Source: Phycisphaerae bacterium (GTDB lineage Bacteria; Planctomycetota; Phycisphaerae; UBA1845). From it: DNA of 64,000 nt. Both the position numbers and the translations under genes were made by a program. Below are positions 4,506-37,003 of the stretch, in pieces. Position 1 is the first letter of the stretch; each line of letters starts with the position of its first letter. The stretch lies in the NCBI GenBank assembly GCA_963666835.2, contig CAXXGO010000001.1, positions 576,001-640,000 on the forward strand, given 5' to 3'. A model generated the notes under the pieces. It had not been told where the DNA came from, ran no database searches, and worked only from the letters and a program-made list of their open reading frames with translations.

Positions 4506-5624
4506 ATGAAATGGTCTTGGAAGGCGGGTGCGATCTCGGGAGTCGCCATCCATATTCATTGGACGTTCGTGCTTCTGATCGGCTGGATTCTTGCTGCCCA
4601 TCTGACGCGTGGTGAGACGATCGCTGACGCTATGGTGGGGCTCGGCTTCATCTTGGCGATCTTCGGTTGTGTTGTGCTGCATGAACTTGGCCATGCCCTC
4701 GCAGCTAGACGCTATGGAATCGCGACGCGGGATATTACGCTGCTGCCAATCGGCGGTGTCGCCCGGCTTGAGCGGATGCCAGAGAATCCTATCGAGGAGC
4801 TGGTTGTCGCGGTAGCCGGTCCTGCCGTCAACATGGTGATTGCCGCTGCCCTCCTTGTAGGCGTCGCGGTGTCCGTGGGAATCGGCTCGATGGGGCAAGT
4901 CGACCCAGCGGGAGGGCACTTCTTGGTCCAGTTGACGTACGTGAACATCGCACTGGTCGTGTTCAATCTCATTCCGGCGTTTCCCATGGATGGAGGTCGC
5001 GTCTTGCGGGCGCTCCTCGCGACACGCATCGAGTACGTGCGCGCGACGCAGATCGCGGCCACAATAGGGCAAGGTCTGGCCATCGTCTTCGGCGTCTTAG
5101 GCTTCTTCTTCAATCCGTTCTTACTGTTCATTGCGCTCTTTGTATATCTCGGGGCGCAGGCCGAAGCTCATCACACCGAATTGCGTTCGCTCACACGCGG
5201 TGTGCCGGTGCGCGAGGCGATGGTCACGCGGTTTCGGTCGCTGGCAGAGGCTGACAGCCTCTCGAAGGTGGTCGAGGAGTTGCTCTCCGGCGACCAGCAG
5301 GATTTTCCAGTCAAGAGCGGCTCCCGTGTAGTAGGAATCCTCCCCCGGGACGCGTTGATCAAGGCCCTCGCGTCAACCGGGCCAACCGGCAGCGTGGCCG
5401 ACGTGATGCGGCGAGACTTCCAAACGGTGAGCGATACCGAGATGCTCGATCAGGTATTCGAACCGATGCGCGCGGCAGGCCTGAGAGCCGTCCCCGTTAA
5501 TCGACAGGGTGAGCTGGTCGGAATGCTGACGCTTGAGAACCTCGGGGAATGGATGATGGTGAACTGCGCGCTTCGGAAATGTCGGCCACGAAGCGCCATC
5601 GAGAATATCTTCGGCAAGATCTGA
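4506..5624 (+). CDS. Site-2 (M50) zinc metalloprotease with tandem CBS domains
   Basis: HELGH, AGP, FNLIPAFPMDGGR, C-terminal CBS pair. Confidence 0.92.
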   Translation: MKWSWKAGAISGVAIHIHWTFVLLIGWILAAHLTRGETIADAMVGLGFILAIFGCVVLHELGHALAARRYGIATRDITLLPIGGVARLERMPENPIEELVVAVAGPAVNMVIAAALLVGVAVSVGIGSMGQVDPAGGHFLVQLTYVNIALVVFNLIPAFPMDGGRVLRALLATRIEYVRATQIAATIGQGLAIVFGVLGFFFNPFLLFIALFVYLGAQAEAHHTELRSLTRGVPVREAMVTRFRSLAEADSLSKVVEELLSGDQQDFPVKSGSRVVGILPRDALIKALASTGPTGSVADVMRRDFQTVSDTEMLDQVFEPMRAAGLRAVPVNRQGELVGMLTLENLGEWMMVNCALRKCRPRSAIENIFGKI

Positions 5625-11211: not shown

Positions 11212-11592
11212 CTAGACTTTCTTTTTCTCGCGGAAGAGTGGCGACTCGGCCAAGGTGAAGACCACGATCTCTTCTCCGGTGGTGGTGCTGATGTCGTGGT
11301 GCAGGCTCACGACCTTGATGCCGGTGACCTCCTGGACCGTCGATTCCAGGACCGGCCGGGCCGTTTCGATGAGTTGGATCCTCACTTGCTTGAGCAAGTC
11401 CCGGCCCTTCTCGGTTGGTTGCGACTGGACGAGATGCTGCTCGGCCGCGGTCAGAACGCCCTGAAGACGGACCACGAGGAGGTCGCTAATCAAGTGGGAC
11501 TGGATATTCTTCGGCCCGCGGCCCATGAACTCCTGTTCAAAACGCCTGATGCCCTCGGAAACGGCAGCCTCGATTTCTCCCTGTGTTTTCAT
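11212..11592 (-). CDS. DUF2294 / MpsC-like protein
   Basis: MKTQGEIEAA..FEQEFMGRGP, LVVRLQGVLTAAE, TGIKVVSLHHDISTTTGEE; GGAGG RBS before ATG 11592. Confidence 0.85.
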   Translation of the reverse strand: MKTQGEIEAAVSEGIRRFEQEFMGRGPKNIQSHLISDLLVVRLQGVLTAAEQHLVQSQPTEKGRDLLKQVRIQLIETARPVLESTVQEVTGIKVVSLHHDISTTTGEEIVVFTLAESPLFREKKKV

Positions 11593-11784
11593 CGTGACCT
11601 CCAACCTGTCCCACGTACCGGTCAAAGTCTGGCAGAGGCGAAACGTTTACTCGGCCAAAAGCGAAACCGTCTGGCGTCGGAAACCTGCGTAGTAGCAGGG
11701 AATCGCCGACCGGGTAATAATTCTGCTTTGTTTCTCAGAAACTGCAAGCATCGGCGCGCCGATGGAGTATACTATAGTAGTGAG

Positions 11785-11931
11785 CGGGGTTGCCGTACGC
11801 CTAACGGCGGCTCCGGTCGAGGTTTTCGGATGACTTAATAAAGGGCAACCCGGCGCTGCCGGGGCGTCCGTTGCAGAGTAAGCCGACGTGGTTGCGCACC
11901 TTCGGGTGTTTGGCCACGTCGGCTTTTTTTT
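11785..11931 (+). ncRNA. Structured leader with intrinsic terminator, copy 1 (candidate attenuator/riboswitch)
   Basis: P1 hairpin, CGGATGACT, GGCAACCCGGC-GCCGGGG, GTTGCAGAGTAAGCCG, then hairpin plus T8; homologous to copies at 12280 and 14766. Confidence 0.72.
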
Positions 11932-11944
11932 GAGGAGTTCAACC

Positions 11945-12211
11945 ATGGTTATCGGAGTAATCGGCTGGATCGTGTTGGGGCTCATCGCCGGCTACATTGC
12001 CAGCACGCTGGTAAACAAGCGTGGCAAAGGACTCGCCTTTGATATTCTGCTCGGCATGGTCGGCGCGGTGATTGGCGGCTGGATCTTCAACGCGGCCGGG
12101 GCTACCGGCGTGACGGGCTTCAATGCCTGGAGCCTTCTGGTGGCCGTGGTCGGAGCGGTGGTAGTGCTGGTAGTCTGGCACGCCATCCGACGCTCGGCCC
12201 GGCGCGCATGA
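11945..12211 (+). CDS. GlsB/YeaQ/YmgE (transglycosylase-associated) stress membrane protein
   Basis: GWIVLGLIAGYIA, DILLGMVGAVIGG, SLLVAVVGAVVVL; GAGGAG RBS. Confidence 0.88.
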   Translation: MVIGVIGWIVLGLIAGYIASTLVNKRGKGLAFDILLGMVGAVIGGWIFNAAGATGVTGFNAWSLLVAVVGAVVVLVVWHAIRRSARRA

Positions 12212-12279
12212 ACTTCACGATATCGACGTGAAAGGACCGCCTCATGTAGCGGCGTGAGTCCTCTCTCGTCGAGGCAGCG

Positions 12280-12441
12280 GTAGAAGATGTACGGAGCCAA
12301 CGGTGACGTTTCGTTCGGCTCCAATCATGGTTTGAGTCGGATGACTAGATGAAGGGCAACCCGGCCTGGCCGGGGGGCTCGTTGAAGAGTAAGCCGACGT
12401 GGTCGCGCACCTTCGGGTGTCTGGCCGCGTCGGCTTTTTTT
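12280..12441 (+). ncRNA. Structured leader with intrinsic terminator, copy 2
   Basis: GGAGCCAACG/CGTTCGGCTCC hairpin, AGTC-GGAT-GACT, conserved core, terminator plus T7. Confidence 0.75.
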
Positions 12442-12499
12442 GTTCTTGGCGGCCGCGGTGGTGCGGACGAACGATCCTTTCGCAGAAAGGTGCAGAGAC

Positions 12500-12949
12500 A
12501 TGTTAAGAACCCGATGGCATCCTTTGGGCGTGGTGTGGCCGGAGATGAACCGTCTGCCGGCGGAAATGGAGCATAGGTTAGGCCGTTTTGTGATGAACGA
12601 CCCGAGGCGGCTTGCCCACAGCGCCTATCCGCCGCTCAACCTCTGGGAGGACGACAACAACCTGTACGTCGAAGCGGAACTTCCCGAGCTTGAGGTGACC
12701 GACCTGGAGATCTTTGTCAAAGGCGACAACGAGCTGTCGATCAAAGGCGAGCGCAAGCAACCCGAACTGGGAGAGGGCAAGTGGCATCGTCGGGAGCGAG
12801 GCCATGGTGAGTTCTCGCGGGTGGGCGTGTTGCCTCACTACGTGGACAGCGACAAGGTCACGGCCAAATTCAGGCACGGTGTGTTGACCATCACGTTGCC
12901 GAAGCGAAAGGAGGCCCAGGCGCGGCGAATCGAGGCCAAAGCCACCTAA
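12500..12949 (+). CDS. Hsp20/alpha-crystallin small heat shock protein
   Basis: YPPLNLWED, AELP, LSIKGERK, RRER..GEFSR, A.F..GVLTITLPK. Confidence 0.92.
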   Translation: MLRTRWHPLGVVWPEMNRLPAEMEHRLGRFVMNDPRRLAHSAYPPLNLWEDDNNLYVEAELPELEVTDLEIFVKGDNELSIKGERKQPELGEGKWHRRERGHGEFSRVGVLPHYVDSDKVTAKFRHGVLTITLPKRKEAQARRIEAKAT

Positions 12950-13108
12950 TTCCGACACCGGCCGCGTCTCGCCCGCCTTCCACGTCGGCAGGTTGGGTCG
13001 AAAGTGGCCATGTCACGGGAGGTGGGCCTCGACACGAAATCGGCGGTCAATGCGAGCGCGAAACAACGTTTTGGAACGTATTTTCTTGACAAAGTGGAGG
13101 TGCAAACC

Positions 13109-13504
13109 ATGACACCAACCTTAACGACGGAAGAAACCCACAGCGACGTTGCCCCCGTGGAACGTACACTCGGTGGGATTACTTTCAGTCCCCGGTTCGA
13201 CATCTGGGAGAACGACGACGAGACGATTCTGTACGGCGATCTACCCGGTGTCATGCCGAGGGATTTGGATGTTAGCTTCGAAAAGCCCGTGCTGACGATT
13301 CACGGCAAAGTCAGTCCGCGCCACGATGACATCAAGTTCCTGCACGGCGAATACGGAATCGGCGATTTTCACCGTACGTTCACCATCGGCGAAGCGATCG
13401 ACACGGAGAGGATCTCCGCCGAATTCAAGAACGGTGTCCTGACCGTGCATTTGCCGAAGGACGAGAAGGTGAAACCGCGTGAGATCGAGGTCAAATGCCG
13501 CTGA
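13109..13504 (+). CDS. Hsp20/alpha-crystallin small heat shock protein
   Basis: PRFDIWE, DLPGV, EYGIGDFHRTF, AEFKNGVLTVHLPK; GGAGG RBS. Confidence 0.92.
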   Translation: MTPTLTTEETHSDVAPVERTLGGITFSPRFDIWENDDETILYGDLPGVMPRDLDVSFEKPVLTIHGKVSPRHDDIKFLHGEYGIGDFHRTFTIGEAIDTERISAEFKNGVLTVHLPKDEKVKPREIEVKCR

Positions 13505-13753
13505 TGCAAAGACCTCTGAGGAATCGTATCTGGTTCGAAATCGGAGCCGCTGGCGCCGAAGGCAAAGGACGCTGCGCTGAGCCCTCCTCGTGTCACCACA
13601 ATGAAAGGTCTTCCAGTTGCTCCATTCTGATCATCCTGCTGCCTACGGGACGCACGTGATCACCAGCGCAGCGAGATCGTCTGCGCTCAAGAAGGAGGTC
13701 TGGTTATGACTCGATTCGCTTGGATGACTGATTGATCTAAAAGGAGAATCTTC

Positions 13754-14740
13754 ATGGATCCTATCGTGTATGCAGTGATCTTCGCCGTTGTCGTTCCTTT
13801 AGTGGTCTTTTTCTCGGGCATCAGGCTTGTTCGTCCAACACACAAGGGACTCGTCGAGAGGCTCGGCAGGTACCGGCGCTTCGCGAATCCGGGTTTCAAC
13901 TGGATCATCCCTGTCATTGACAGAATGATCAAGGTCAACACGACGGAGCAGATGGTTGATGCCCAGCCGCAAGAGATCATCACCAACGACAATCTCAACG
14001 CCAGGGTGGATGCCCAAGTCTACTTCAAAGTGAAGGACGACGAGGAAAGCGTCAAGAGTTCCCAGTACCACGTCAACAACTACCAGAGTCAGATTGTCAG
14101 CCTGGCTCGGACGACACTCCGCAATATCATCGGCACGTTAACCCTGAAATCCGCCAACAGCGAACGAGACAACATCAACGGTGCGCTTCTGACTACGTTG
14201 AGCAAGGAAACCATGAGCTGGGGAATGGCGATTGTCAGGACCGAACTGAAGGAAATCGACCCTCCCAAGGATGTCCAGGAGACGATGAACAAGGTTGTCA
14301 AAGCGGAGAACGAGAAGGTAGCCGCCTTGGATTTCGCCAACGCGGTCGAGAGACAGGCGGATGGGGAAAAGAGGGCGGAGATCAAGAAGGCCGAAGGCAT
14401 CAGGCAGGCCAAGATTCTTGCGGCGGAGGGCGAGGCTCAGGCAATAAAGCTCGTGAATGAGGCGGCGAACACATACTTCATTGGAAACGCACAGCTTCTG
14501 AGGAAGCTGGAGGCCCTCGAGAGCTCATTGAGCCACAATGCCAAGATCGTCATTCCGTCAGGCTGTGAACTGGTCAATGTCATCGGAGAGATGGCCGGCG
14601 TTTTGCCGCTGGCGGGCGGAAACGGACGACGCCGAAGCGAAGACGGAAAACACGGGTCCGCGGAGTTGGCGCGGGCGGCCCAGCGGGTGGTCAAGCCTTC
14701 TGTTATGAGGGAGGAGGTCCGCTCGCAGCCTGCGCTGTAG
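13754..14740 (+). CDS. SPFH/band 7 (stomatin-like) protein
   Basis: N-terminal TM, VERLGRY, PQEIITNDN, TTLRNIIG, ELKEIDPP. Confidence 0.9.
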   Translation: MDPIVYAVIFAVVVPLVVFFSGIRLVRPTHKGLVERLGRYRRFANPGFNWIIPVIDRMIKVNTTEQMVDAQPQEIITNDNLNARVDAQVYFKVKDDEESVKSSQYHVNNYQSQIVSLARTTLRNIIGTLTLKSANSERDNINGALLTTLSKETMSWGMAIVRTELKEIDPPKDVQETMNKVVKAENEKVAALDFANAVERQADGEKRAEIKKAEGIRQAKILAAEGEAQAIKLVNEAANTYFIGNAQLLRKLEALESSLSHNAKIVIPSGCELVNVIGEMAGVLPLAGGNGRRRSEDGKHGSAELARAAQRVVKPSVMREEVRSQPAL

Positions 14741-14765
14741 ATGCTGGTCGGCATTCATGCGGTCA

Positions 14766-14925
14766 GTAGAGGATGTACGGAGCCACCGGTGACGTTTGAT
14801 TCGGCTCCGATCACAGTTTGAGTCGGATGACTAGACGAATGGCAACCCGGCCGTGCCGGGGGGCTCGTTGAAGAGTAAGCCGGCGTGGTCAGACACCTTA
14901 TGGTGTCCCACCGCGCCGGCTTTTT
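14766..14925 (+). ncRNA. Structured leader with intrinsic terminator, copy 3
   Basis: Close to copy 2 in the 5' part; terminator stem carries compensatory changes. Confidence 0.75.
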
Positions 14926-14973
14926 CTCGCTTGCAGTGGTAGTGGACGGCCGTAGCGGCCAGGGAGGAACGCC

Positions 14974-15393
14974 ATGGACAAACCCAATTCAACAATGGCG
15001 CGCCAGATTGCCCAGGCGGCCAGTGTTTTCGAGCAGCAGAGGACGGGCAACACACCCAAGTCCGTGACCGTGGTGCTGAGCGACACCACGCTGGTGATCA
15101 CGCTGCACGGGGCCTTGTCGGAGGCCGAGAAGGCCCTGGCGAGAAGTCCCGAGGGTGCCGCTCAGATACAAGACTTTCACCGACAGCTGTTCGCCAACGC
15201 CTCCGAGTCGTTGCGACAGGAGATCAAGAGGATTACTGGCGTGGAGGTGCGTGAGGCTACCGCGGAAGTCGAGCCGGCTACCGGCACCGTGGTAGGCGTG
15301 TTCACAAGCGGCACGACGGTACAGGTATACCAGCTCGCGCATGGCGTACCCACGGACACCTGGAACGGGAGTGAACGAGGCGACCAATCATGA
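14974..15393 (+). CDS. DUF2294 / MpsC-like protein (second paralog)
   Basis: FEQQRTGNTPKSVTVVL, LVITLHGALSEAE, FHRQLF, ITGVEV; GGAGG RBS. Confidence 0.8.
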   Translation: MDKPNSTMARQIAQAASVFEQQRTGNTPKSVTVVLSDTTLVITLHGALSEAEKALARSPEGAAQIQDFHRQLFANASESLRQEIKRITGVEVREATAEVEPATGTVVGVFTSGTTVQVYQLAHGVPTDTWNGSERGDQS

Positions 15394-15409
15394 GATCGGG
15401 GGTTCTACC

Positions 15410-15610
15410 ACGTTCCTTTTGTCGAGGAAGAACCGTAAATCCGTGGTTGCCGGATGTTCCAACTGCGTCGGGCGCCTTCTGCGGATCATGGTGCTCGTGT
15501 TTTATGACGGGACCGCAAGTCCGGGCTTTGAAGCCGGTGACGGTTTCCCTGTCCATCGTTGGGAGGTGTGCGAACGGATTCGCGCCGGTGTCGGGCTGGA
15601 AGCAGGTTGA
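15410..15610 (+). pseudogene. csrA: CsrA (carbon storage regulator)-like gene with ACG at the start position
   Basis: (T/M)FLLSRKNRKSVVAG...RIMVL...GFEA....PVHRWEVCERIRA follows the CsrA pattern MLVLSRK..ES..IG...PVHR.EV..RI. Confidence 0.68.
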
Positions 15611-15628
15611 CTGACAAGGAGAACACCG

Positions 15629-16072
15629 ATGGGTAAGACGAACGTCGAACGACGAAACCACGCGTGGTTTGCCCTGGCAGACGCAGAGCATTGTCGGCTC
15701 TTGTGCTGCCGCTTGACTGAACAAGGCACGCCACACGTTGACGAGTATGAAGCGATCGAGAACAAGTTTCCAGAACGTGAACACCTGCGGCCGCAGACCG
15801 GGGACGGCATGACCCATGATGTCGAGGAGAAGGAGCGACGTTTCACGGGGAAGATCGTGGAAAGGTTGCAGGAGAACGCCAAGAAGCACGAGATCGATTG
15901 CCTGGTCATCTTCGCGCCCGCTCGCATGCTCGGCGAACTCCGGAAGGCTTCCTCCCGACTGCTACCGGGACACCTTAAGGAACTCGAGGGCAATCTGATG
16001 CGGCTGCGCGTCGGTCAATTGGCGGAACATCCGATGATCCGCGAACTGGTGCAGGCCACGCATGAGGCATGA
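15629..16072 (+). CDS. Host attachment protein / baeRF-like (release factor-related) protein
   Basis: W..LAD..HCRL, RF...I.ERL, LVIFAPARMLGELRK. Confidence 0.7.
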   Translation: MGKTNVERRNHAWFALADAEHCRLLCCRLTEQGTPHVDEYEAIENKFPEREHLRPQTGDGMTHDVEEKERRFTGKIVERLQENAKKHEIDCLVIFAPARMLGELRKASSRLLPGHLKELEGNLMRLRVGQLAEHPMIRELVQATHEA

Positions 16073-16149
16073 TTAACCGGCATTTGGGGCCGTAGTCGGC
16101 TTTTCTTATGAATATTTGGATCTTATATCAAACAAAAGGAGCGACACAA

Positions 16150-20207: not shown

Positions 20208-22112
20208 ATGCCTGACAAATGGCGTGATCTTTGCAGTACCAAGCTCGTGACCGCCGCCGAGGCGCTCAAGGCCATCCGGCCCGGCAACCGCGTGTTCGTC
20301 GGCTCGGCGTGCGGCGAGCCACAGGAACTCGTCCGGGCCATGACCGAATTCGGCGACCGCCTGGAAGACACCGAAGTCATCCATGTGCTCACCCTCGGCG
20401 TCGCGCCCTATGCGGAGCCGAAGTACGCTCCGAACTTCCGGCCTAACGCGTTCTTCGTCGGCAGCAGCGTGCGCGAAGCCGTCAACGAGGCGCGGGCCGA
20501 CTACACACCGGTTTTCCTCTCGCAGTTGCCGGGGCTATTCCGTTCCCAACGCATCGCGATCGACGTGGCCCTGGTTATGGTCAGTCCGCCGGACGACTAC
20601 GGCAACTGCAGCCTGGGCGTTTCGGTCGATATCACGAAGGCGGCGGTCGAGTCTGCGAAGCGGGTCGTCGCGCAAGTGAACCGGCACATGCCGCGCGCGC
20701 ACGGTGATTGCTTCCTCAATGTTCGGCAGATGCACTACCTGGTCGAGCACGACGAGCCGCTGCTCGAGTGGCCTGAGGTCGGCGAGCCGGATGAGGTCAC
20801 CCGGCAGATCGCGACCCATCTGGCCCGACTGGTGCCCGACCGGGCGACGCTGCAACTTGGCATCGGGCGGATTCCCGACGCGGTTCTATCCCTATTGACC
20901 GAGAAGCACGACCTGGGAATCCACACGGAGATGTTCTCTGACGGCGTGCTCAAGCTGGCCCGGCAGGGAGTCATCACCGGCAAGTACAAGACGCTCAATC
21001 CGGGCAAGATCGTCGGCAGCTTCGCGGCCGGCAGCCGCGAGTTGTTCGAATACATGAACGACAACCCGCAGATCGAGATGCACCCGTCGGAGTACACTAA
21101 CCATCCGGGCGTGATCAGCGGGCAGGAGAACATGGTCGCCATCAATGCGGCCCTGGAGGTGGACCTGACCGGGCAAGTGGTCGCCGACTCGCTCGGGCAA
21201 TTGCTGTACAGCGGCATCGGCGGGCACGCGGACTTCATTCGCGCCGCGGCGCTGGCCAAGAACGGCAAGCCGATCATCGCTATGCCCAGCACCGCCGACA
21301 CGCCGGCGGGGGTCAAGTCGCGCATCGTCGCGACGCTTCAGGAAGGTGCCGGCGTGATCACGACGCGCGGCGACACGCACTACATCGTCACCGAGTACGG
21401 AGTGGCGTTCCTCCACGGCAAGACGATGCGCGAGCGAGCCATGTCGCTCCTGAGCGTGGCGCACCCGGACTTCCGAGCGGAACTGCTGCACGCGGCCAAG
21501 CAGCGACGGATCGTGTACTCGAACCAGATCATGCCGCCCTCTCAAACCCCTTATCCCGCTCAATACGAGGAGACGCTCACCCTGGACAGCGGCGAGAAGA
21601 TCTTCGTCCGGCCGATACGTTCGGACGACGAACCGCGCATGCGCGAGATGTTCTATGACTTCAGCGAGAACACGAAGTACTTGCGTTATCACGCGGCGAC
21701 GAAGTCCATGCCGCACAACAAGCTGCAGGTCTTCTGCACGGTCGACTACGACAACGACATGGCGCTGATTGGCCTGCACGGCCCGCCGGGAGGCGAGGAG
21801 GTCGTGGGCGTCGCGCGCTATATGACCGACGCCGAGAAGCGGTCGGCCGAGGTAGCGTTTACGGTTAGCGACGCTTGGCAGCGCAAGGGGCTCGGAACGT
21901 ATTTCTTGGGACGCCTCGTCTACATCGCCCGCCTGCAGGGCATCCAGACCTTCCACGCCTACGTGCTGGTCCAGAACAGCGGGATGCTCAAGATCTTTCA
22001 TGGCTCCGGGCTCGTTGTAGAGACGACAACGGAGGATGGCGTTGTGTGCGTGACGATGAAGCTGCCGGAAGAAAGGCCGGGAGATCCGAACCGTGTCGGG
22101 CTCGACGGATGA
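20208..22112 (+). CDS. Acetyl-CoA hydrolase/4-hydroxybutyrate CoA-transferase fused to a GNAT domain
   Basis: TLQLGIG.IP, GIHTEMFSDG, EVDLTGQ, SGIGG..DF, IVTEYG; C-terminal WQRKGLG. Confidence 0.9.
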   Translation: MPDKWRDLCSTKLVTAAEALKAIRPGNRVFVGSACGEPQELVRAMTEFGDRLEDTEVIHVLTLGVAPYAEPKYAPNFRPNAFFVGSSVREAVNEARADYTPVFLSQLPGLFRSQRIAIDVALVMVSPPDDYGNCSLGVSVDITKAAVESAKRVVAQVNRHMPRAHGDCFLNVRQMHYLVEHDEPLLEWPEVGEPDEVTRQIATHLARLVPDRATLQLGIGRIPDAVLSLLTEKHDLGIHTEMFSDGVLKLARQGVITGKYKTLNPGKIVGSFAAGSRELFEYMNDNPQIEMHPSEYTNHPGVISGQENMVAINAALEVDLTGQVVADSLGQLLYSGIGGHADFIRAAALAKNGKPIIAMPSTADTPAGVKSRIVATLQEGAGVITTRGDTHYIVTEYGVAFLHGKTMRERAMSLLSVAHPDFRAELLHAAKQRRIVYSNQIMPPSQTPYPAQYEETLTLDSGEKIFVRPIRSDDEPRMREMFYDFSENTKYLRYHAATKSMPHNKLQVFCTVDYDNDMALIGLHGPPGGEEVVGVARYMTDAEKRSAEVAFTVSDAWQRKGLGTYFLGRLVYIARLQGIQTFHAYVLVQNSGMLKIFHGSGLVVETTTEDGVVCVTMKLPEERPGDPNRVGLDG

Positions 22113-22165
22113 AGGGTCAGAGGAATCGAAAGTGGCGTTCAGTTGGGCCTCCACGGACTATATCC

Positions 22166-22295
22166 GCCGCCGCCCTGTTCGTGGGGGTCGCGGTGTCCGT
22201 GGGAATCGGCTCGATGGCGCAAGTAGACCCAACGGGAGGGTACTTCCTGGTCCAGTTGAGGTACGTGAACATCGCACTGGTCGTGTTCAATCTCA
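22166..22295 (+). repeat. 130-bp diverged copy of an internal segment of the M50 protease gene (4842-4971)
   Basis: Ungapped alignment by eye, about 12 mismatches in 130 bp. Confidence 0.88.
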
Positions 22296-22722
22296 GTACG
22301 GCCGCTGGTACTGCCGTATTAGCCGCCCGCTGGAGCATCCTGGCAAGAGACGAGCAACACAAGCCTATGACGCGGCAATCAGCTATCCGCAGGGGATGCG
22401 GCATCACAAAGCTGCGAGGCTACTGTGGCTGCTGAGAGCTGGACTCTCGCGGAGACTGCGCGAAGAGATTGCCGCGGAGATCATCGCCATGTCGCAGGCA
22501 GTGTCGGGTCCGTGAAATGAGCCCTCGGGCGGACGACATGAGCATTGTGACAAGGACTACAACAAAGTGGGCAGAGGTCTCCGGCGAACGCGCGTTCTTC
22601 GTTGCGATCGTCTGCTGCGTCACTAGAATGACGAGGGAGGAGTTGTTGATGGAAATCTCGTGTTGGATATCGGCACACGTCTAAACCGGGACGTGCGCAC
22701 TAAGATGTAAGCGAGGCGCGCC

Positions 22723-24357
22723 ATGGAAATGTCGAACCTAGTGTGCGACTACGGATTGGAACAGATCGGTCTGACGAAGCTTGGAAACATTTACTGGAAC
22801 CGGTCGACACCAGCACTCTACGAAAGCACGATCCGTCAGGGCGAGGCGCAGATCTCGCACCTCGGACCTTTGCTCGTGCGCATGGGGCAGCATACCGGAC
22901 GGGCGGCACGGGACAAGTACGTTGTGGATGAGCCGAGCACTTCTGGCAACATCTGGTGGGGCAAGATCAACATCAGATACCAAGACGAGCGTTTTGCGGG
23001 ATTGCAGCGCCGCATGTGCGCCTACCTTCGCGGCAAGAAGGTGTTTGTCCAGGATTGCTACGCTGGCGCCGACGAGCGTTACAGGATCGCGGTTCGCGTC
23101 ATCACCGAGTTCGCCTGGCACAGTTTGTTCGCACGGAACATGTTCATCCAGCAGCCGCGCGAGCGGGAGGCGATCCGGTCCTTCAAGCCCGAGTTCACTA
23201 TCCTGCACTGTCCGGACTTCCACGCTGATCCCGACGACGACGGAACGCGCAGCGGTACCTTCGTCGCCCTGGACTTCGCACGGAAGCTGATTCTGATTGG
23301 CGGCACGGCCTACGCCGGCGAGATCAAGAAGTCGATCTTTACGGTCTTGAACTACCTACTGCCCGGTCGCGGCATACTCTCGATGCATTGCTCGGCAAAC
23401 GTCAGTAAGAGCGATCCGGATGACGTGGCCATTTTCTTTGGCCTTTCGGGAACGGGCAAGACGACTTTATCAACCGATCCCAATCGCCTTCTGATCGGCG
23501 ATGATGAGCACGGTTGGTCGGACGACGGGGTCTTCAATTTCGAGGGCGGTTGCTATGCCAAAGTGGTCAGGCTTTCCAAGGAATCGGAGCCGGAGATCTA
23601 CGAGTGTACACGGCGGTTTGGCACCATCCTGGAGAACGTGGCCATGGACCCCGCGACGCGTTACATCGATCTGGACGATGTGGCCATTACCGAGAACACG
23701 CGGGCGGCATACCCGCTCAAGCACTTGAGTGACATCGTGCCCTCGGGAAGGGCAGGCCACCCGCGCAACGTGGTGATGCTAACGGCCGACGCCTTCGGTG
23801 TGTTGCCGCCGATCGCCCGACTGACGCCGGAGCAGGCGATGTATCATTTCATCAGTGGTTACACGGCAAAACTGGCCGGTACCGAGGCAGGCGTGACAGA
23901 ACCCAGTGCCGTGTTCAGCGCTTGTTTCGGCGCCCCATTCTTGGCGAGACATCCTTCAGTTTACGCCGCGCTGCTCGCCGCGAAGCTGGTTAAGCACAAG
24001 GCCGATTGTTGGCTGGTCAACACGGGATGGACAGGCGGGCCTTACGGCGTCGGTTCGCGCATGAAGATCGAGGTCACGCGGGCCGTGCTAAACGCTGCGT
24101 TGGCCGGGACATTGGCCGACGCCGAGACGGAGGAGGATCCTCACTTCGGGTTCCAGGTCCCGCGTGAGGCGCCCGGCGTGCCGACTGACATACTCAATCC
24201 ACGCAAGACTTGGCGCGATCCGAGAGCATATGACGAGCAAGCGAAGAAACTCGCCGGTATGTTCAGGAAGAACTTCGAGCAGTCTGCTGGTGGTACGGCG
24301 GATGAGGTCGTTGCTGCGGGACCAAGAACCGACAGGGAGCGCACCGAGGTGCGCTAA
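22723..24357 (+). CDS. pckA: Phosphoenolpyruvate carboxykinase (ATP)
   Basis: GTAYAGEIKKS, SMHCSAN, FFGLSGTGKTTLS, IGDDEHGW, FEGGCYAK. Confidence 0.96.
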   Translation: MEMSNLVCDYGLEQIGLTKLGNIYWNRSTPALYESTIRQGEAQISHLGPLLVRMGQHTGRAARDKYVVDEPSTSGNIWWGKINIRYQDERFAGLQRRMCAYLRGKKVFVQDCYAGADERYRIAVRVITEFAWHSLFARNMFIQQPREREAIRSFKPEFTILHCPDFHADPDDDGTRSGTFVALDFARKLILIGGTAYAGEIKKSIFTVLNYLLPGRGILSMHCSANVSKSDPDDVAIFFGLSGTGKTTLSTDPNRLLIGDDEHGWSDDGVFNFEGGCYAKVVRLSKESEPEIYECTRRFGTILENVAMDPATRYIDLDDVAITENTRAAYPLKHLSDIVPSGRAGHPRNVVMLTADAFGVLPPIARLTPEQAMYHFISGYTAKLAGTEAGVTEPSAVFSACFGAPFLARHPSVYAALLAAKLVKHKADCWLVNTGWTGGPYGVGSRMKIEVTRAVLNAALAGTLADAETEEDPHFGFQVPREAPGVPTDILNPRKTWRDPRAYDEQAKKLAGMFRKNFEQSAGGTADEVVAAGPRTDRERTEVR

Positions 24358-24492
24358 TAATGGAAAGTGTAGCGTTTGAGCGGCGAACGGTCACCCGTTC
24401 GACAGGCTGATTGGCTACCATGCTGCCGCTGGAAGTAGCGCCGGGTGATCGCCGGCAGAGCGTATGTTCAATTTGTGCTGTGGAGTTGCGCG

Positions 24493-26229
24493 ATGGAGCC
24501 AAAGCCAACCGTGGCCTATTTTTCGATGGAGATCGGCCTGGATCCGGCCGTGCCGACGTACAGCGGTGGCCTCGGCGTGCTTGCAGGGGACTCCCTGCGT
24601 GCGGCCGCCGATCTCAAGTTGCCCATGGTCGCGGTGACACTGGTTCACCGGCGAGGCTACTTCTATCAACGCCTCGACGCTCAGGGGAACCAGACCGAGG
24701 AACCCGTGGATTGGCCGCTCGACGACTATCTGAAGCCGCTTGAGCTTCGAACGACGGTGACGCTCGAAGGGCGTCAGGTGCAGATCGCCGCCTGGCAGTT
24801 CGATGTCGTGGGGGTAGGTGGTTTCACCGTTCCGGTGGTCCTCCTTGACACCGATGTGCCCGAGAATGCCGAGGATGACCGGTCGATCACGCATCATCTT
24901 TACGGAGGAGACTCGCGCTATCGACTGCGGCAGGAGGCTGTCCTGGGAATCGGCGGCGTACGCATGCTCCGGGCGTTGGGCCTTCGCGAGCTCGAACGGT
25001 ACCACATGAATGAAGGCCACGCAGCCCTGTTGGTGCTGGAACTGCTTAAGGAGGAGTCCAGCGTTCGGCAGGTTGGCCCGGCCGAGCAGCCTGTCGTGGA
25101 TGCGGTCCGGCGCCTGTGCGTCTTCACCACACACACGCCGGTCGAGGCCGGGCACGACAAGTTCCCGATCGATCTCGCTCGCGATGTTCTGGAGCCGGAA
25201 CTCATCCAGATACTAACGTCCACCGAGGGGCAGGACGCGCTTTGCTGTGACAAACTCTTGAACATGACCTTCTTGGGGTTCGCCCTCAGCCACTACATCA
25301 ATGGAGTGGCCAAACGACACGGCGAGGTCTCCCGGCAGATGTTCGGGCAATATCCGATCGATGCGATCACCAACGGCATCCACTCAGCGACCTGGACGGT
25401 ACCGCCGGTTGCGGAGATGTTCGATAAGTACATCCCGGGTTGGCGTGAGGACACCGCCAGTCTCCGATACGCGATGTCAATAGATCGCGACGTGCTGTGG
25501 AATGCACACTCTGCGGCCAAACGTCGCTTGATTGAAGAGGTGAATCGAGATACGAACGCGGGGTTCGATCAGGATGTCTTCACCATCGGCTTCGCACGAC
25601 GGGCGACAGCCTACAAACGCCCCGATCTGATTCTGACGGACATGGATCGTCTCAAACGCGTTGCGCGGGACGTCGGCGCCTTGCAGTTGGTGTACGCGGG
25701 CAAAGCTCACCCGAACGACGGTCAGGGCAAGGAGACCATTCGAGCCATTGTCGGCGCCTGCCGCGCGCTCCACCCAGAGATTCGCGCTACGTACCTTCCC
25801 AATTATGACATGGAGAGGTGCCAACTGATGGTGGCCGGCGTGGACCTCTGGTTGAACACGCCGCAGCCGCCGTTGGAGGCTTCCGGTACGAGTGGTATGA
25901 AAGCCGCCGTCAACGCTGTGCCGTCGCTCAGCGTTCTTGATGGATGGTGGCTGGAGGGCTGCATCGAAGGAGTAACCGGTTGGGCCATCGGCGATGACCC
26001 CGTGACACGCGATCCAGACGCACGCCCATCAGTTCCACCGTCAGACGAGGCTCGCCGGCGCGATGCCGACTTGCTCTATCGCAAGCTGGAGGAAGTCATC
26101 TTGCCGTTGTTCTACAGCAATCGGACTGGGTACGTCGACGTGATGCGTCTTGCGATTGCCATCAACGGCTCGTTCTTCAACACGCGGCGCATGATGCAGA
26201 ACTACGTGGCCAAAGCGTACTTTGAGTAG
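24493..26229 (+). CDS. glgP: Alpha-glucan (glycogen) phosphorylase
   Basis: AYFSMEIG, YSGGLGVLAGD, HMNEGH, FARRATAYKR, EASGTSGMKA. Confidence 0.95.
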   Translation: MEPKPTVAYFSMEIGLDPAVPTYSGGLGVLAGDSLRAAADLKLPMVAVTLVHRRGYFYQRLDAQGNQTEEPVDWPLDDYLKPLELRTTVTLEGRQVQIAAWQFDVVGVGGFTVPVVLLDTDVPENAEDDRSITHHLYGGDSRYRLRQEAVLGIGGVRMLRALGLRELERYHMNEGHAALLVLELLKEESSVRQVGPAEQPVVDAVRRLCVFTTHTPVEAGHDKFPIDLARDVLEPELIQILTSTEGQDALCCDKLLNMTFLGFALSHYINGVAKRHGEVSRQMFGQYPIDAITNGIHSATWTVPPVAEMFDKYIPGWREDTASLRYAMSIDRDVLWNAHSAAKRRLIEEVNRDTNAGFDQDVFTIGFARRATAYKRPDLILTDMDRLKRVARDVGALQLVYAGKAHPNDGQGKETIRAIVGACRALHPEIRATYLPNYDMERCQLMVAGVDLWLNTPQPPLEASGTSGMKAAVNAVPSLSVLDGWWLEGCIEGVTGWAIGDDPVTRDPDARPSVPPSDEARRRDADLLYRKLEEVILPLFYSNRTGYVDVMRLAIAINGSFFNTRRMMQNYVAKAYFE

Positions 26230-29822: not shown

Positions 29823-31127
29823 ATGGCGAAACGAGGCAGAAAACCCAAGCATTACGTCACCTCGGACGGCGAAACCATCGTTGGTCTGACCAAGCGAGCC
29901 GACGGTCGTTTCGGGCCGGTTGGTGTGGCTGGCGTTGCGTTCGGCAGTGACGAAGCCACGGCCATCGCTCGGTTCCGCAAGTGGGAAGCTGAGCGGGATG
30001 GCACCGCTTGGGAGAAGCACGTCGGGGACGATCTCAAGGTCGATTCGATCTGGTACGGGATGCGGTTCACTGGTCCCGGCAAGTCAACTACTGCCGCCGG
30101 ACGACGCTTGGAGAAGATGGCCCTCGCCTATGTCGCCGAGTATAGGAAGTTCATCCGCAACCTTATCCTCACCAATCCCCACCAGGCGGCCATCGAACTC
30201 GACATCGAGGAGCTGAAGTGGTTCGACGAGTTCAGATCGCCTGGCCTATCGGTACGCCTTGAAGACATCGGTGAGGCCTACCGCAGCAAGCGCAAGAAGA
30301 TCAGCGATACCTGGCGGAGGAAAGTCAAGCGGTTCTGGAGCGAGTTTGTCGACGCAGTTGGCGTGGAGACCGTGGCCGAGATTTCGGCAGACGACATCAG
30401 CCGCTACCACAATATCGTGTGGGACGACTACGAGAAGAACGACAGGTCACCCACCTACGTCGCCCACCGCTTCCAGTGCATCAAGACGATGTTGAACCAT
30501 GCGATGAAACAGGGCAAGGACCACAAGCATATTCGTCGCGTCATCGATCTGTGTGCCATGTTTACGACTCCCGACAAGACCGGGACCGATCCTCACCCGA
30601 TATCGCGTGAACATTTCGACGCCCTGTTGGCGGTTTCGGACGCCAAGTGGACGGCCATGTTTCTGCTTGCTTTGAACGCTGCGTTCTATCCGTCGGAGGT
30701 TGCTGCGGTGAAGAAGTCGCATGTTGATCTTGATGCCGCAACGCTTGTCATGGATCGGAGCAAGACAGGCGTTCCCCGGATCGCGGTTCTCTGGAACCGC
30801 ACGGTCGAGGCGATCAGGGAATACTTGGACGGAAGCCGAAACGAGTCGGAGTACTTGTTCGTCTCAGCGACGGGTGCTCCATACAACGCCAACCACGCCA
30901 GCCGGAATTTCAGGCGTCGGCGAACCGAGGCCGAACTTCCGGATGAGGTGAAGTTCGACAACATCCGCGATGGAGCCTATACCGCCGCTGTGGAAGGAGG
31001 GGCCGATGTGAACCAAGCCAAAATGTTGGCTGGCCACCGTGTTGGAATCAGCGATCACTATCTCAAGCGGAATCCCAGTATGGTGGCCGACGCCTGCCGG
31101 GCTATCGAGGAGCGGTATTTCGGGTGA
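29823..31127 (+). CDS. Tyrosine recombinase/integrase (divergent)
   Basis: SAM-like core domain, RSKTG, FDNIRD, LAGH...DHY. Confidence 0.82.
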   Translation: MAKRGRKPKHYVTSDGETIVGLTKRADGRFGPVGVAGVAFGSDEATAIARFRKWEAERDGTAWEKHVGDDLKVDSIWYGMRFTGPGKSTTAAGRRLEKMALAYVAEYRKFIRNLILTNPHQAAIELDIEELKWFDEFRSPGLSVRLEDIGEAYRSKRKKISDTWRRKVKRFWSEFVDAVGVETVAEISADDISRYHNIVWDDYEKNDRSPTYVAHRFQCIKTMLNHAMKQGKDHKHIRRVIDLCAMFTTPDKTGTDPHPISREHFDALLAVSDAKWTAMFLLALNAAFYPSEVAAVKKSHVDLDAATLVMDRSKTGVPRIAVLWNRTVEAIREYLDGSRNESEYLFVSATGAPYNANHASRNFRRRRTEAELPDEVKFDNIRDGAYTAAVEGGADVNQAKMLAGHRVGISDHYLKRNPSMVADACRAIEERYFG

Positions 31128-31195
31128 TAGGCTCGCCATCCGGGCTTACGGGTAATCGTAGCACTCCAGAATCCGTCATCACATCGACATTATCC

Positions 31196-32071
31196 TCACG
31201 CGAAGAGTTCTTCCCCAGGCTCGTCGGACTTGCGGGTTTTACGCCGATCTGCCAGATCTTTCAGGTCAAGGTGGTTCTTCTCTTCGGTCGTTGCGTCGCA
31301 CCCACTCAACGCCTTGAATGCCTCTGCGTTTACTTTCCTCATCACTCGATGGAGTTTATCGAGTATTGTGGGGTCTACAGTTCGAGGATCGGAGCGATGA
31401 TATGCGACATTGCATCGAATCAGCCGCTGAAGCAGATTCAGTGTGTCATCGCGTGACAGAGCAGTAGAAGACTCCGGAATCCAATGGTCCGCTTCAAGGC
31501 GACCTTTCTTCTTCTTCTTCCTCTTGATCTTCGCCCCCGCTTTCCTCGCGGTCTTTCTCCTTTCGGCCTCTCTCCTTGCGGCCTCTTTCTTTGCGGCCGC
31601 CTTCTTCCTCGACTCCAATTTGAGTTCTCGCACTGTCTTGGGCCGTGGACTCCTCAGCATGTATTCGATTTGACGCACGTCGCCAGCGTCTACAAAGCCG
31701 ACCTCCCGTTCGCACCCGCTTGCATCCATCACCGTTGCTATCTGCAGGACCTTCGCCCCTTCGCGGTTTTCGAGGCGAGCGATGGCCTTGCGAACCGTAT
31801 CGGCGTGCACACCGAGTTCCTTGGCGATCTCGGGGACCATGAGCGTTCCCTTCGGCCGATCCGCGTATCTCCTGTAGTCGGTCCGGAAGTAGATCAACTG
31901 CTTAATCTGTTCACCCGTGAACTTCCGGCCCCCGCCGGTTAGCACAGGTTCGATGCCAGCCTTCGCAGCGGTGCGACGCACCGTATCGGTCGAGCATTGC
32001 AGTTCTTTCGCAACTCGCCCTATTCCGTACAGGGCATCCGGGACGAGGTTGCCAGTCTCGCTGGTTGTCAT
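31196..32071 (-). CDS. Tandem helix-turn-helix protein with possible HNH-like C-terminus
   Basis: IGRVAKELQCSTDTVRR and VPEIAKELGVHADTVRK; ADHWIP...NL....CN. Confidence 0.6.
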   Translation of the reverse strand: MTTSETGNLVPDALYGIGRVAKELQCSTDTVRRTAAKAGIEPVLTGGGRKFTGEQIKQLIYFRTDYRRYADRPKGTLMVPEIAKELGVHADTVRKAIARLENREGAKVLQIATVMDASGCEREVGFVDAGDVRQIEYMLRSPRPKTVRELKLESRKKAAAKKEAARREAERRKTARKAGAKIKRKKKKKGRLEADHWIPESSTALSRDDTLNLLQRLIRCNVAYHRSDPRTVDPTILDKLHRVMRKVNAEAFKALSGCDATTEEKNHLDLKDLADRRKTRKSDEPGEELFA

Positions 32072-32571
32072 TCTTAGCCTCCCGCAACTGTTCGGTTTCT
32101 CGCTTGCCGGTTCGCGTTTTTTCGGCGGTGCATCGCTCGGCAACCGTTCATTATACGAACTATCGATCATACACCGCGAATAACAGGGGTCTAATCCTAG
32201 AAAGTGCACGAGCCTATGCCATGAGGTTGGGCTTTCTACCGGTTTTGAGCGTTTCCATGGCCTTCCAACGCACGATTCACTAATCCCCGCGTCAATTCCC
32301 GGGAGGCCCTGTTCCGATTATGTAAGAATTGGCTTGCATAGGAGCGGTAAAACCTTGCAGCTACCCGGCTCGTGTGTCTCTTTGCCCATATTCGTCCTAT
32401 AACTCATGCGAAATAATAGCCTGAGCCACTCATTCTCTTTGCCCTCGCACGTTTTGTATCCTACGCTCAATATGAGGCAGCGGCTCACTGGAGCAGGGCA
32501 ACGTGTTTGACGTGCAACGACGCCTGGAGACGAGCCGCATCCAGGCTGCCGGTTAGCGAAGGAGAGGAAGG

Positions 32572-32799
32572 ATGAGCAGGCGGGACAAGAGCAAGAAGAG
32601 ACGCAACCGGCGACGGCGTGCAACCGGCAAGGGTGGGACTCAGCCAGGCAAGGACTCCCCCGCCTTCCGGGTGCGAATGTGTGAAGCCAAGATCCACAAT
32701 ACGCACGGTGGACAGGTAATCAAGCACCTTGTGCCGCTGAGCGATCTTGCAAGATCGCAACGTCAATCGGTACGCGGGAGTCTTGCGGTACCAGATTGA
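32572..32799 (+). CDS. Small basic hypothetical protein
   Basis: AAGGAGAGG RBS; directly upstream of the AAA gene. Confidence 0.4.
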   Translation: MSRRDKSKKRRNRRRRATGKGGTQPGKDSPAFRVRMCEAKIHNTHGGQVIKHLVPLSDLARSQRQSVRGSLAVPD

Positions 32800-32815
32800 T
32801 GTAGCCGGCGCTGCA

Positions 32816-33685
32816 ATGACCGCGAGCTTCGGCATCGAGCACCATCTTGTTCCGCGGGAAGATCCAACGTTCGTTTGGACGGAGCCCTGCCGGGACGTGG
32901 CCGAGGCGGTCGAGCACAACGAACGCGTGTTCATCTACGGTCCGAGCGGCACAGGCAAGAGCTCGCTGGTTCGGCAAATCGGCGCGCTCACGCTACGACC
33001 GGTTCGGCGGGTCTCGCTCAACGGCGAGACCAGCGTGGGTGACTTCGTCGGACACTGGACTGTCAACGAAGAGAAGGAGACCGTCTTCGTCAAGGGCATT
33101 CTCCCTCAGGCGTTGGAACAGGGCCAGATCCTTCAGTTGGACGAAGTCGACGCCATGCAGCCGGAGGTGGGTTTCGTCCTTCAGCAGGTGCTCGAGCCCG
33201 GCGGGCATCTTTTGCTCACTGACACCGGCGAGGACATCGCACCGCATCCGGATTTCCGGCTGGTGGCTACAGCCAACACGTTGGGCTTCGGATCCGACTC
33301 GGGGCTCTATTCCAGTGGAACGCACGTGCTCAACTTCAGCTGGCTTGATCGCTGGGACGTGGTGGTCCACATGGATCATCTGCCGGCCAAGCGGGAAACT
33401 GAACTGCTGCGCGCCCGCCACCCCGGACTGAACAAGGACCTGATCAAGTGCATGGTCAAATCGGCCGGGGATCTGAGGAGGGCGCACGCCGAAGAGCAGC
33501 TAACCACGGTGCTGAGCACGCGACGTTTGCTGGCGCTCTGCGCTCGGCTGGATCGCGGAAACGACTTCGATCGGGCCCTTGCGGTTTGCGTGCTCAACAA
33601 GGTCCCGCCGGAGGACGTCAAGGTCATCCGCGAGACCTTTGATCATCACGTCGGCCCCCTGGCGCAAAAGGTCACCGCTTCTTAG
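32816..33685 (+). CDS. MoxR/CbbQ-CobS-like AAA+ ATPase
   Basis: GPSGTGKS, LQLDEVD, PHPDFRLVATANT, LDRW, STRRL; frame is open from 32747. Confidence 0.9.
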   Translation: MTASFGIEHHLVPREDPTFVWTEPCRDVAEAVEHNERVFIYGPSGTGKSSLVRQIGALTLRPVRRVSLNGETSVGDFVGHWTVNEEKETVFVKGILPQALEQGQILQLDEVDAMQPEVGFVLQQVLEPGGHLLLTDTGEDIAPHPDFRLVATANTLGFGSDSGLYSSGTHVLNFSWLDRWDVVVHMDHLPAKRETELLRARHPGLNKDLIKCMVKSAGDLRRAHAEEQLTTVLSTRRLLALCARLDRGNDFDRALAVCVLNKVPPEDVKVIRETFDHHVGPLAQKVTAS

Positions 33686-33713
33686 GCGCCAATCGAAGAG
33701 TCTGAATCACAGA

Positions 33714-33756
33714 GGGTTGCGCCCGCAATGGCGATGCGGCTGGCGCGGCCCTTTTT
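33714..33756 (+). terminator. Intrinsic terminator-like hairpin between AAA and VWA genes
   Basis: GGGTTGCGCC...GGCGCGGCCC followed by TTTTT. Confidence 0.5.
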
Positions 33757-33784
33757 CTATGCGCATCGCAAGGAGTTAGAGGAA

Positions 33785-35656: not shown

Positions 35657-36161
35657 ACGGACGAAGCTAATGTTGGATGTCGCGAACGAACTGACAGCGG
35701 CCGACATAGAGTTCTTGAGGGCTGGCGTGCTCGCACAGTCACCGCCTCGTGCGATTCCCCGATCTACTACGGAGAGGCAAGCACGCGGTCAGGCTGCGAG
35801 TACCTCGAGGCAGACGTCCTCGATTATGTCCGCAGGTGAGTATGAACGGGGCCGTACTCGCGAGTCCAAGATCTCCACGGCCTGTGTAGGCACCGAGCGT
35901 GTTAAGCACGCCTGGTGGTCAGTCGGGACGGAGCTGGTGGGCAGAATTGGAAATGAGGAATTCACGGCGAGAGTCGTTGAGAATTCGCAGGTCAAGAGTG
36001 GACGAAGCATCCTGCTCACGTCCGGCGTAGCGAACGGACGGTTGTGTATAACACCGACGCGCGCCGCGCTCGAAGCGACGGAAGCCTATCGACAGGCCAA
36101 TAGCTTAGGTCGCGGCGGCGGCGTCACCAACGGATGGCTGTTCTGGCAGCCGAGGGCCTGA
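35646..36161 (+). CDS. Hypothetical protein with RAMA-like C-terminal domain
   Basis: TPTRAA...TNGWLFW resembles the RAMA SPS.AA...NGW..W pattern; overlaps the VWA stop. Confidence 0.55.
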   Translation: MLDERTKLMLDVANELTAADIEFLRAGVLAQSPPRAIPRSTTERQARGQAASTSRQTSSIMSAGEYERGRTRESKISTACVGTERVKHAWWSVGTELVGRIGNEEFTARVVENSQVKSGRSILLTSGVANGRLCITPTRAALEATEAYRQANSLGRGGGVTNGWLFWQPRA

Positions 36162-36225
36162 CACACGGAGAGAAGCACACGCTGCGCTGCGGAGCGTGTG
36201 CTTCCGGCAAAACAAGGTGAGAATC

Positions 36226-36438: not shown

Positions 36439-36643
36439 CCCAAATACCCGCTCGCCGTACACCGTTTCTTCTTCCTTTCTTTCTTCGCGGTCGGGCTTTC
36501 TGGCCGCGATTCCTCCCCGGAGCTAGCGTCAGCTCTGTCCACCTATTCGCGCTAGACACGAGAAAAAGTGAGTTGCTCACTTGCGCGGGCGCCTTTCGTG
36601 CGCTATGCTCTGGATGGAATCCATCAGTTAAGGAGTGTGTGCG

Positions 36644-36919: not shown

Positions 36920-37003
36920 CCTTACGTTCACGCAGCGGCCGAAGCTGAATGATGGGAATGTCGCGTGCCTCTGATTCATCCATCGTAACCGTCCTTCCAC
37001 CCG

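Follow-up and report, generated by a model that had tools for sequence, protein, structure and literature searches.

A repeated leader RNA of Planctomycetota with two exclusive folds accompanies one clade of MpsC (DUF2294) proteins

We analyzed a window of 64,000 nucleotides (nt) from a Phycisphaerae bacterium (UBA1845; assembly GCA_963666835.2, contig CAXXGO010000001.1, positions 576,001 to 640,000 of the forward strand), whose close relatives named in the databases are Planctomycetota. Within it, a cluster of stress genes contains three copies of a leader RNA and is flanked by a divergent gene for a protein of the MpsC family (DUF2294, PF10057). The leader represents a real RNA family of Planctomycetota, which can form two alternative folds, keeps a recurrent position relative to its neighboring genes and tracks one clade of MpsC proteins, here called type A. 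The family is apparently uncatalogued; the supplements of PMC5737381 and PMC11109978 might list the motif.

Results

Genes and Leaders of the Locus

The features of the locus, in window coordinates, are the following.

11212..11592, minus strand: mpsC type A (DUF2294, 126 amino acids; PF10057, E 3e-36; AlphaFold2 model and co-occurrence), candidate antiterminator acting in trans, with its transcription directed away from the leaders
11768..11773, plus strand: −10-like hexamer TATACT, putative promoter of leader 1 (inspection and comparison with related loci)
11786..11815, plus strand: variable 5' hairpin of leader 1, differing in sequence between copies (folds and alignment)
11825..11931, plus strand: leader copy 1, with antiterminator rod at 11825-11887, overlapping terminator at 11881-11923 and U-tract
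11945..12211, plus strand: GlsB/YeaQ stress membrane protein (PF04226, E 2e-13), the first gene behind leader 1
12336..12441, plus strand: leader copy 2, an internal copy before which no −10 was seen, with antiterminator at 12336-12398, overlapping terminator at 12392-12434 and U-tract
12500..12949, plus strand: Hsp20 small heat-shock protein 1 (PF00011, E 4e-19)
13109..13504, plus strand: Hsp20 small heat-shock protein 2 (PF00011, E 6e-18)
13754..14740, plus strand: SPFH/Band 7 protein (PF01145, E 3e-35)
14822..14925, plus strand: leader copy 3, likewise internal and without a −10 in sight, with antiterminator at 14822-14884, overlapping terminator at 14878-14920 and U-tract
14974..15393, plus strand: mpsC type B (139 amino acids, 28% identical to type A; PF10057, E 5e-22, and tblastn), leader-gated paralog
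15410..15610, plus strand: apparently decayed csrA paralog, with the start codon replaced by ACG and changes at 9 of the 26 conserved residues
15629..16072, plus strand: baeRF12/Host_attach release-factor-like protein (PF10116, E 5e-12; PF18856, E 2e-11)

These assignments agree with most of the gene calls of the initial annotation, which had been made from the letters of the window: one DUF2294 gene lies divergent from the leader cluster, a second follows the terminator of leader copy 3 at a distance of 49 nt, and the GlsB/YeaQ, Hsp20, SPFH and release-factor-like genes were all confirmed by Pfam. Both MpsC proteins score well above the PF10057 cut-off (124 and 78.5 bits vs. 23). The absence of an MpsAB/DabAB transporter was likewise borne out, since DabA/MpsB (PF10070) had no match either in the window or in the genome, which is 92% complete, and the locus thus does not belong to the MpsAB/DabAB systems. 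The block from the first hsp20 gene through the SPFH gene, mpsC type B and csrA to baeRF12 (window 12337-16073) is duplicated over 3.7 kb at 99.1% (G000:C1:525200-528936), and both copies carry the same decayed csrA.

The three leaders of the window are 65 to 87% alike over 160 nt and have folding z scores of -3.4 to -6.4. The whole genome contains nine leader copies, eight of them within 70 kb, and six intact MpsC genes with one broken. The intact genes fall into two types about 28% identical, three of each: a leader lies divergent to each of the three type A genes and to the broken gene, and all three of type B lie directly behind one. The broken gene, a type A remnant at G000:C1:559728-559958, is divergent from an intact leader, behind which lies a second groEL-like gene (560142-561980). 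By inspection, a −10-like hexamer is found before six of the nine copies, and the same was seen at 45 of 70 related loci in comparison with 13 in a control window; a consensus promoter scan did not list the TATACT hexamer of leader 1. Inspection revealed no such hexamer before window copies 2 and 3 or the duplicate of copy 3, and we therefore read these as internal gates.

Rfam covariance models gave no match at gathering score in the window, only chance matches at E up to 10, and on 12 related loci the sole match was tmRNA. Two resemblances, of a stretch in copy 1 to PyrR sites and of a short word to SAM-I, were rejected as not conserved or not structurally right. In four sediment metatranscriptomes, assembled RNA contigs span most of the cluster, and two of them run through a terminator into the following gene; the contigs carry no information on ends, strand or level and could come from DNA, and they were not used.

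Two Mutually Exclusive Folds

We aligned 116 leader copies, each less than 90% identical. The antiterminator is a rod of about 63 nt, composed of a basal helix, a 3 × 3 internal loop (most commonly AUG/AAG), three pairs, a second 3 × 3 loop, an A–G mismatch and an inner hairpin; its internal loops are purine-rich, and conservation is maximal in the basal ones. Across the alignment, 94.1% of the rod cells are paired, with 103 both-side changes in comparison with 22 in shuffled data. The terminator consists of 19 pairs and a U-tract, with 93.8% of cells paired and 190 both-side changes versus 52 shuffled, and a U-run of at least five is present in 109 of the 116 leaders. A hairpin with a U-tract thus stands between the putative promoter and the first gene, as in attenuators that use an intrinsic terminator, and it shares five alignment columns (67 to 71) with the rod, making the two folds mutually exclusive as expected of an antiterminator and its terminator. 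RNAalifold recovers the basal pairs unprompted and returns a single rod as the consensus, and the minimum-energy fold of the nascent RNA makes the basal pair in 96 of 107 leaders. The computed energies are -33 to -36 kcal/mol for the terminator and -28 to -31 kcal/mol for the rod, -17 to -20 of the latter belonging to the inner hairpin, which is compatible with both states. As the terminator is the stronger of the two, the default state is predicted to be OFF.

The Leader Tracks Type A MpsC

The initial annotation had set co-occurrence of the RNA motif with DUF2294 as a test, and we found it for type A in three samples of genomes. The first consisted of 61 genomes of the same order, with leaders counted above 50 bits (G047, at 31.6 bits, was excluded). 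Leaders were present in 22 genomes and PF10057 in 25: 21 had both, 1 the leader only, 4 MpsC only and 35 neither. Three of the four MpsC-only genomes encode distant proteins (52 to 54% identity) and in the fourth the gene is cut by a contig end, while in one of the 21 with both (G016) the MpsC match is degenerate only. In the second sample, 151 genomes spread over the phylum, the leader was found in four, all with type A (one of them broken), and 10 genomes had distant MpsC only. The third comprised 121 genomes of another class, for which type A was defined as at least 183 bits, a cut placed at the gap above the next score of 166: the leader occurred in 11 of 11 type A genomes and in 0 of 15 with distant MpsC only, and 91 genomes had neither. 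The remainder of this sample were two genomes with a broken or partial type A gene and a leader and two with weak orphan leaders and no MpsC.

The association extends to genomes where the two are unlinked. G050 carries 10 strong leaders on eight contigs and its sole type A gene on yet another, with no leader within 1.5 kb, and in G289 and G314 the type A gene and the leaders are similarly on different contigs. Where an intact type A gene is missing, three of the five leaders have lost the core and a fourth lacks the U-tract, in comparison with core loss in 4 of 116 for the family. Such decay where type A is lost is in keeping with a protein-dependent RNA.

The arrangement of the genes is equally consistent. 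We collected 80 type A loci from GTDB and scored 76, leaving out four with too little upstream DNA. A divergent leader lies within 700 nt of type A at 69 of these 76 loci, and the distance from the start codon is 195 to 245 nt at 52 of 70. Behind 165 leader matches we recorded 151 distinct first genes, chosen by a heuristic that got some frames wrong; none of the 151 is type A, 51 are type B and 11 are GlsB. Dozens of different genes are found in this position, among them those for GroEL, DUF892, BON, DUF883, PRC-barrel, KaiC-like, PP2C and glycosyltransferase proteins, the Pfam identities being matches on 47 of 69 cluster representatives, and we take them to be a general-stress set. In the MpsC tree (row L135, in a wrong frame, was ignored), type B forms a separate clade with support 91/86. 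Most leader genomes have type B, although some (G026) lack it and none is found near 28 of the 80 type A loci.

Two observations concern the spread of type A. One type A gene that has no leader close by, at L018 (G050:C79), lies behind a tmRNA-like 5' piece, with a tmRNA match 1.4 kb upstream, which suggests an integration site. Type A with a leader also occurs in records labeled as Gammaproteobacteria, Verrucomicrobia and an archaeon (L036, L047 and L096), reflecting either transfer or mis-binning.

Predicted Structures of the MpsC Proteins

The AlphaFold2 model of type A (pLDDT 91) has the order helix-strand-strand-helix-helix-strand-strand, and the model of type B (pLDDT 75) has the same. 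A sequence search of solved structures and a search of the ESM Atlas (without PF10057) revealed no clear relative, which does not make the fold new, and HutP was not among the fold matches listed. Lysine or arginine is conserved at 90% or more in 13 positions of type A and 3 of type B, a difference that hints at type A being the RNA binder and type B a modifier. A predicted complex of the two proteins scored 0.09 against a mark of 0.32, which is evidence in neither direction.

Distant MpsC Clades

Within 350 nt behind 8 of 16 distant MpsC genes there is a related core (GG-NNG-AY with RU-ANR-CC) that continues into a terminator, in comparison with no matches in 135 kb elsewhere and a mean of 0.01 after shuffling. 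Two of the eight loci are from Bacillota (Acetoanaerobium and Anoxybacillus), and in Anoxybacillus a bicarbonate permease follows. The descriptor had been written after seeing its loci, and it matched none of 16 held-out distant-MpsC loci. In a post hoc and uncontrolled count, 7 of these 16 have a promoter-like TTGAC followed by a terminator, two of them before sbtA, and three are preceded by an AUAGGC arm. Judged by sequence, MpsC genes appear widely tied to attenuator-like leaders; a single universal motif is not supported. The genes that follow distant MpsC loci include sbtA, pckG and the gene for NADH dehydrogenase subunit 5, and such neighbors hint at inorganic carbon as the signal.

Four of the distant loci (L163, L165, L166 and L174) have MpsC before sbtA, identified by Pfam, and carbonic-anhydrase-like genes, recognized by eye only, mostly with a promoter-terminator leader in between. 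At L020 and L135, a second, divergent MpsC paralog lies behind the leader, repeating the A/B layout within a distant clade.

Other Features of the Window

Four to 10 kb downstream of the cluster (window 20208-26229) are genes for an acetyl-CoA hydrolase-GNAT fusion, an ATP-dependent phosphoenolpyruvate (PEP) carboxykinase and a glucan phosphorylase. PEP carboxykinase genes also adjoin distant MpsC loci; the copy in the window has no leader before it. A 137-nt piece of an M50 peptidase-CBS gene (window 4842-4978) recurs between genes at 22166-22302 with 90% identity and is probably a gene remnant. Window 29823-46434 is of mobile or defense type, with a tyrosine integrase, an AAA ATPase with a VWA protein, a serine recombinase and an AbiEi/AbiEii pair, and a KAP NTPase lies at 47632. 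At the window end, a 46-nt repeat occurs nine or more times in a large gene (60049-62189), encoding in frame a short cysteine- and aspartate-rich peptide repeat.

Discussion

A Candidate Mechanism

The reading that we favor, with moderate confidence, is that MpsC type A serves a general-stress regulon as its antiterminator, acting in trans by stabilizing the rod at all leaders, with type B providing feedback. RNA polymerase would start about 45 to 60 nt upstream of the leader, and the nascent RNA would fold into the rod, whose basal helix (UCGG-AUG-ACU/AGU-AAG-CCGA) takes up the 5' arm of the terminator. By the computed energies the terminator would win without help, and the leader would act as a default-OFF transcription attenuator. 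Type A, made from the divergent gene and thus outside the attenuated transcript, may bind the purine-rich internal loops, stabilize the rod and allow read-through at every leader of the genome. The cluster in the window would then be controlled by three serial gates and the nine genomic copies would constitute a general-stress regulon. Type B would be made only after read-through and could feed back as partner or antagonist, with the csrA paralog as a regulated passenger.

The initial annotation had proposed that DUF2294 and/or CsrA proteins control read-through at the leaders, with autoregulation at copy 3. The DUF2294 half of the proposal is supported by the co-occurrence and the fixed divergent geometry, while the CsrA half fails on the decay of the gene, the absence of the paralog clade from 12 of 22 leader genomes and the pairing of the leader's GG. 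Feedback at copy 3 is plausible; the gene there is the distinct type B paralog and not the likeliest activator.

Several results weigh against an antiterminator role of type A. Leaders without MpsC were found in three genomes (G041, G257 and G293), the genomes counted for co-occurrence include kin that are not independent, and the first sample supplied part of the sequences behind the leader model. On the RNA side, the structure model was drawn from the same sequences on which it is scored, the basal helix shows no both-side change and its two G–C pairs never vary, and the nascent minimum-energy fold of copy 3 lacks the basal antiterminator helix, unlike those of copies 1 and 2. On the protein side, Foldseek found no match at E 0.001 for either model; with VIA-align, RbfA (KH type II-like; Z 5.6, rmsd 3.8, 88 aligned) ranked 11th, tied with unrelated folds; and type A has as many conserved acidic positions, 13, as conserved basic ones and a mean net charge of -1.9, in an alignment less diverse than that of type B. 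The failure of the distant-core descriptor on held-out loci points in the same direction. Lastly, deletion of mpsC in Staphylococcus aureus gave no phenotype or growth defect (PMC6689103; this paper and those cited below are quoted from part of their text).

Alternative Explanations

The rod could instead be a riboswitch for a small molecule or ion, working as an ON switch, with the MpsC genes linked as members of the same pathway that make no contact with the RNA. Conserved purine-rich loops on a terminator platform would suit an aptamer, the three leader-only genomes are in line with it and the genes next to distant MpsC loci suggest an inorganic-carbon signal. A riboswitch, however, needs no gene outside its transcript, whereas type A is placed divergently at a fixed distance and never behind a leader; the RNA matches one protein clade only and decays where type A is lost, and it has no match among Rfam riboswitches. 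We consider this explanation unlikely.

Similarly improbable, in our judgment, is that type A acts by another route: by melting the terminator in the manner of HutP, by binding DNA of the divergent promoter, or in need of type B or another factor as the RNA-binding unit. Which molecule type A contacts cannot be read from co-occurrence, the 195- to 245-nt spacing would also fit shared promoter DNA, type B is found in most leader genomes and the terminator stem itself is well conserved. Yet the internal copies 2 and 3, before which no promoter was seen, keep the rod, conservation peaks in the basal loops of the rod and not all leader genomes or loci have type B.

That CsrA, either the linked paralog or a housekeeping protein, binds GGA in the leader and sets termination appears highly unlikely. 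The CsrA-like frame of the window, which the initial annotation had noted behind the second DUF2294 gene, scores 15.2 bits against a Pfam cut-off of 27 and has no NCBIfam match. ACG stands where an intact relative has ATG, the ribosome-binding site is changed, and the nine differences at conserved positions include proline for an invariant leucine, in comparison with zero to four in 21 intact relatives; the frame looks like a decaying gene and not like a functional CsrA. In relatives, the linked paralog is a true CsrA clade (PF02599, E 4e-13) that keeps R6 and R50 and is usually placed behind type B, near 28 of 80 type A loci. The clade occurs in leader genomes only (10 of 22, one with an internal stop, vs. 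0 of 39 others), which would fit a role at the leader, but a paralog so restricted and still missing from 12 of the 22 is better seen as a dispensable member of the regulon. A housekeeping csrA is found elsewhere in the genome and in all 61 genomes of the first sample, and a universal gene cannot explain a patchy leader; the expected co-occurrence of motif and csrA thus did not hold. Among the leaders, GGA is present in 107 of 116, and the terminated fold puts it in a hairpin loop in 23 of the 107. The other nine have GGU or GGC, though, all 116 leaders have the GG paired, the ANGGA context is seen once and only one of the eight distant MpsC cores has GGA; an unpaired (A)NGGA in a hairpin loop, the mark of a CsrA target, is thus not a feature of the leader. 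CsrA favors ANGGAN loops, and pairing of the GGA lowers its affinity (PMC7652899). The protein is common in Planctomycetota (PMC13443453, without mention of MpsC in the part consulted), and it could act on downstream ribosome-binding sites.

Hitch-hiking on a mobile stress island, with the repeats as duplicated ordinary terminators, has in its favor the duplication of the 3.7-kb block, the clustering of eight copies within 70 kb and the patchy distribution (4 of 151 in the phylum sample), but is very hard to reconcile with covariation that extends upstream of the terminator into the rod, the dozens of different first genes, the unlinked co-occurrence in three genomes and a related core beside MpsC in Bacillota.

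Wider Implications

Extending the antiterminator reading of type A beyond its clade is a tentative step that we would not bet on. MpsC/DUF2294 would be an unrecognized family of single-domain RNA-binding antiterminators reaching from Planctomycetota to Bacillota, with clade-specific hairpins and roles, each clade having co-evolved with a purine-loop hairpin variant particular to it. Distant clades would gate bicarbonate/CO2 genes (sbtA, pckG and mpsAB-like), perhaps as direct sensors of inorganic carbon; in planctomycetes the clade would be a master switch, with a stress regulon run wholly by antitermination and a leader-gated paralog as feedback.

In our view the leader is an attenuator family, apparently not yet catalogued, that pairs with an orphan family of proteins; it would be a variant of protein-dependent antitermination if binding is confirmed. 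If the antiterminator reading is true, a common orphan domain annotated as a sodium-transport subunit would gain a function, a general-stress regulon would be controlled at termination and not by a sigma factor, and the CO2 regulation of bicarbonate transporters would become testable in Bacillus subtilis. There, ybcI presumably lies in the ndhF operon. A 158-nt RNA has been mapped just upstream of ndhF (PMC2965217). MpsC would also form a new family beside CAT, ANTAR and HutP on the short list of RNA-binding antiterminators given in the consulted part of a 2025 review, which does not mention it (PMC12591593). MpsC is likewise unmentioned in the consulted parts of a 2026 preprint on non-coding families and a 2026 preprint on B. 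subtilis bicarbonate, and a full-text literature search, which did not extend to subscription journals, found no work related to DUF2294.

Comparison with Known Systems

S. aureus MpsC, of the mpsABC locus, and B. subtilis YbcI share the PF10057 domain with the proteins described here, and distant members of the family adjoin bicarbonate-related genes; unlike in S. aureus, no DabA/MpsB was found in the genome studied. In S. aureus, mpsA expression is lower in 5% CO2 and MpsC is dispensable for MpsAB transport (PMC6689103), so the name "Na+-translocating" says nothing about function here. The resemblance to CsrA/RsmA is limited to a true paralog clade linked in relatives, which is decayed in this genome and dispensable, next to a leader without an ANGGA loop.

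HutP resembles MpsC in being a small alpha/beta protein of one domain whose gene lies outside the attenuated region, and the distant MpsC loci have a similar layout of gene followed by terminator. It differs in binding NAG motifs and melting the hutP-hutH terminator (PMC12591593), whereas here a separate antiterminator is conserved. The analogy to ANTAR proteins (AmiR, NasR and EutV; PMC12591593) drawn in the initial annotation holds in its logic, a proposed protein-dependent antitermination at several leaders of one regulon, some of them internal. It does not extend to the parts: the RNA is one irregular rod and not two short hairpins, no cluster protein matches ANTAR, and no sensor or receiver domain is attached.

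Closer are BglG, SacY and LicT with their RAT hairpins (PMC12591593), in which an imperfect 5'-leader hairpin overlaps an intrinsic terminator, the default is OFF and a dedicated protein stabilizes the hairpin, as MpsC type A may do here. Those proteins have CAT and PRD domains, whereas each MpsC protein is a single PF10057 domain with no such Pfam match. The RNA, a rod of about 63 nt with two 3 × 3 loops and no Rfam match, is different from RAT, and it serves a multi-site stress regulon in place of sugar operons.

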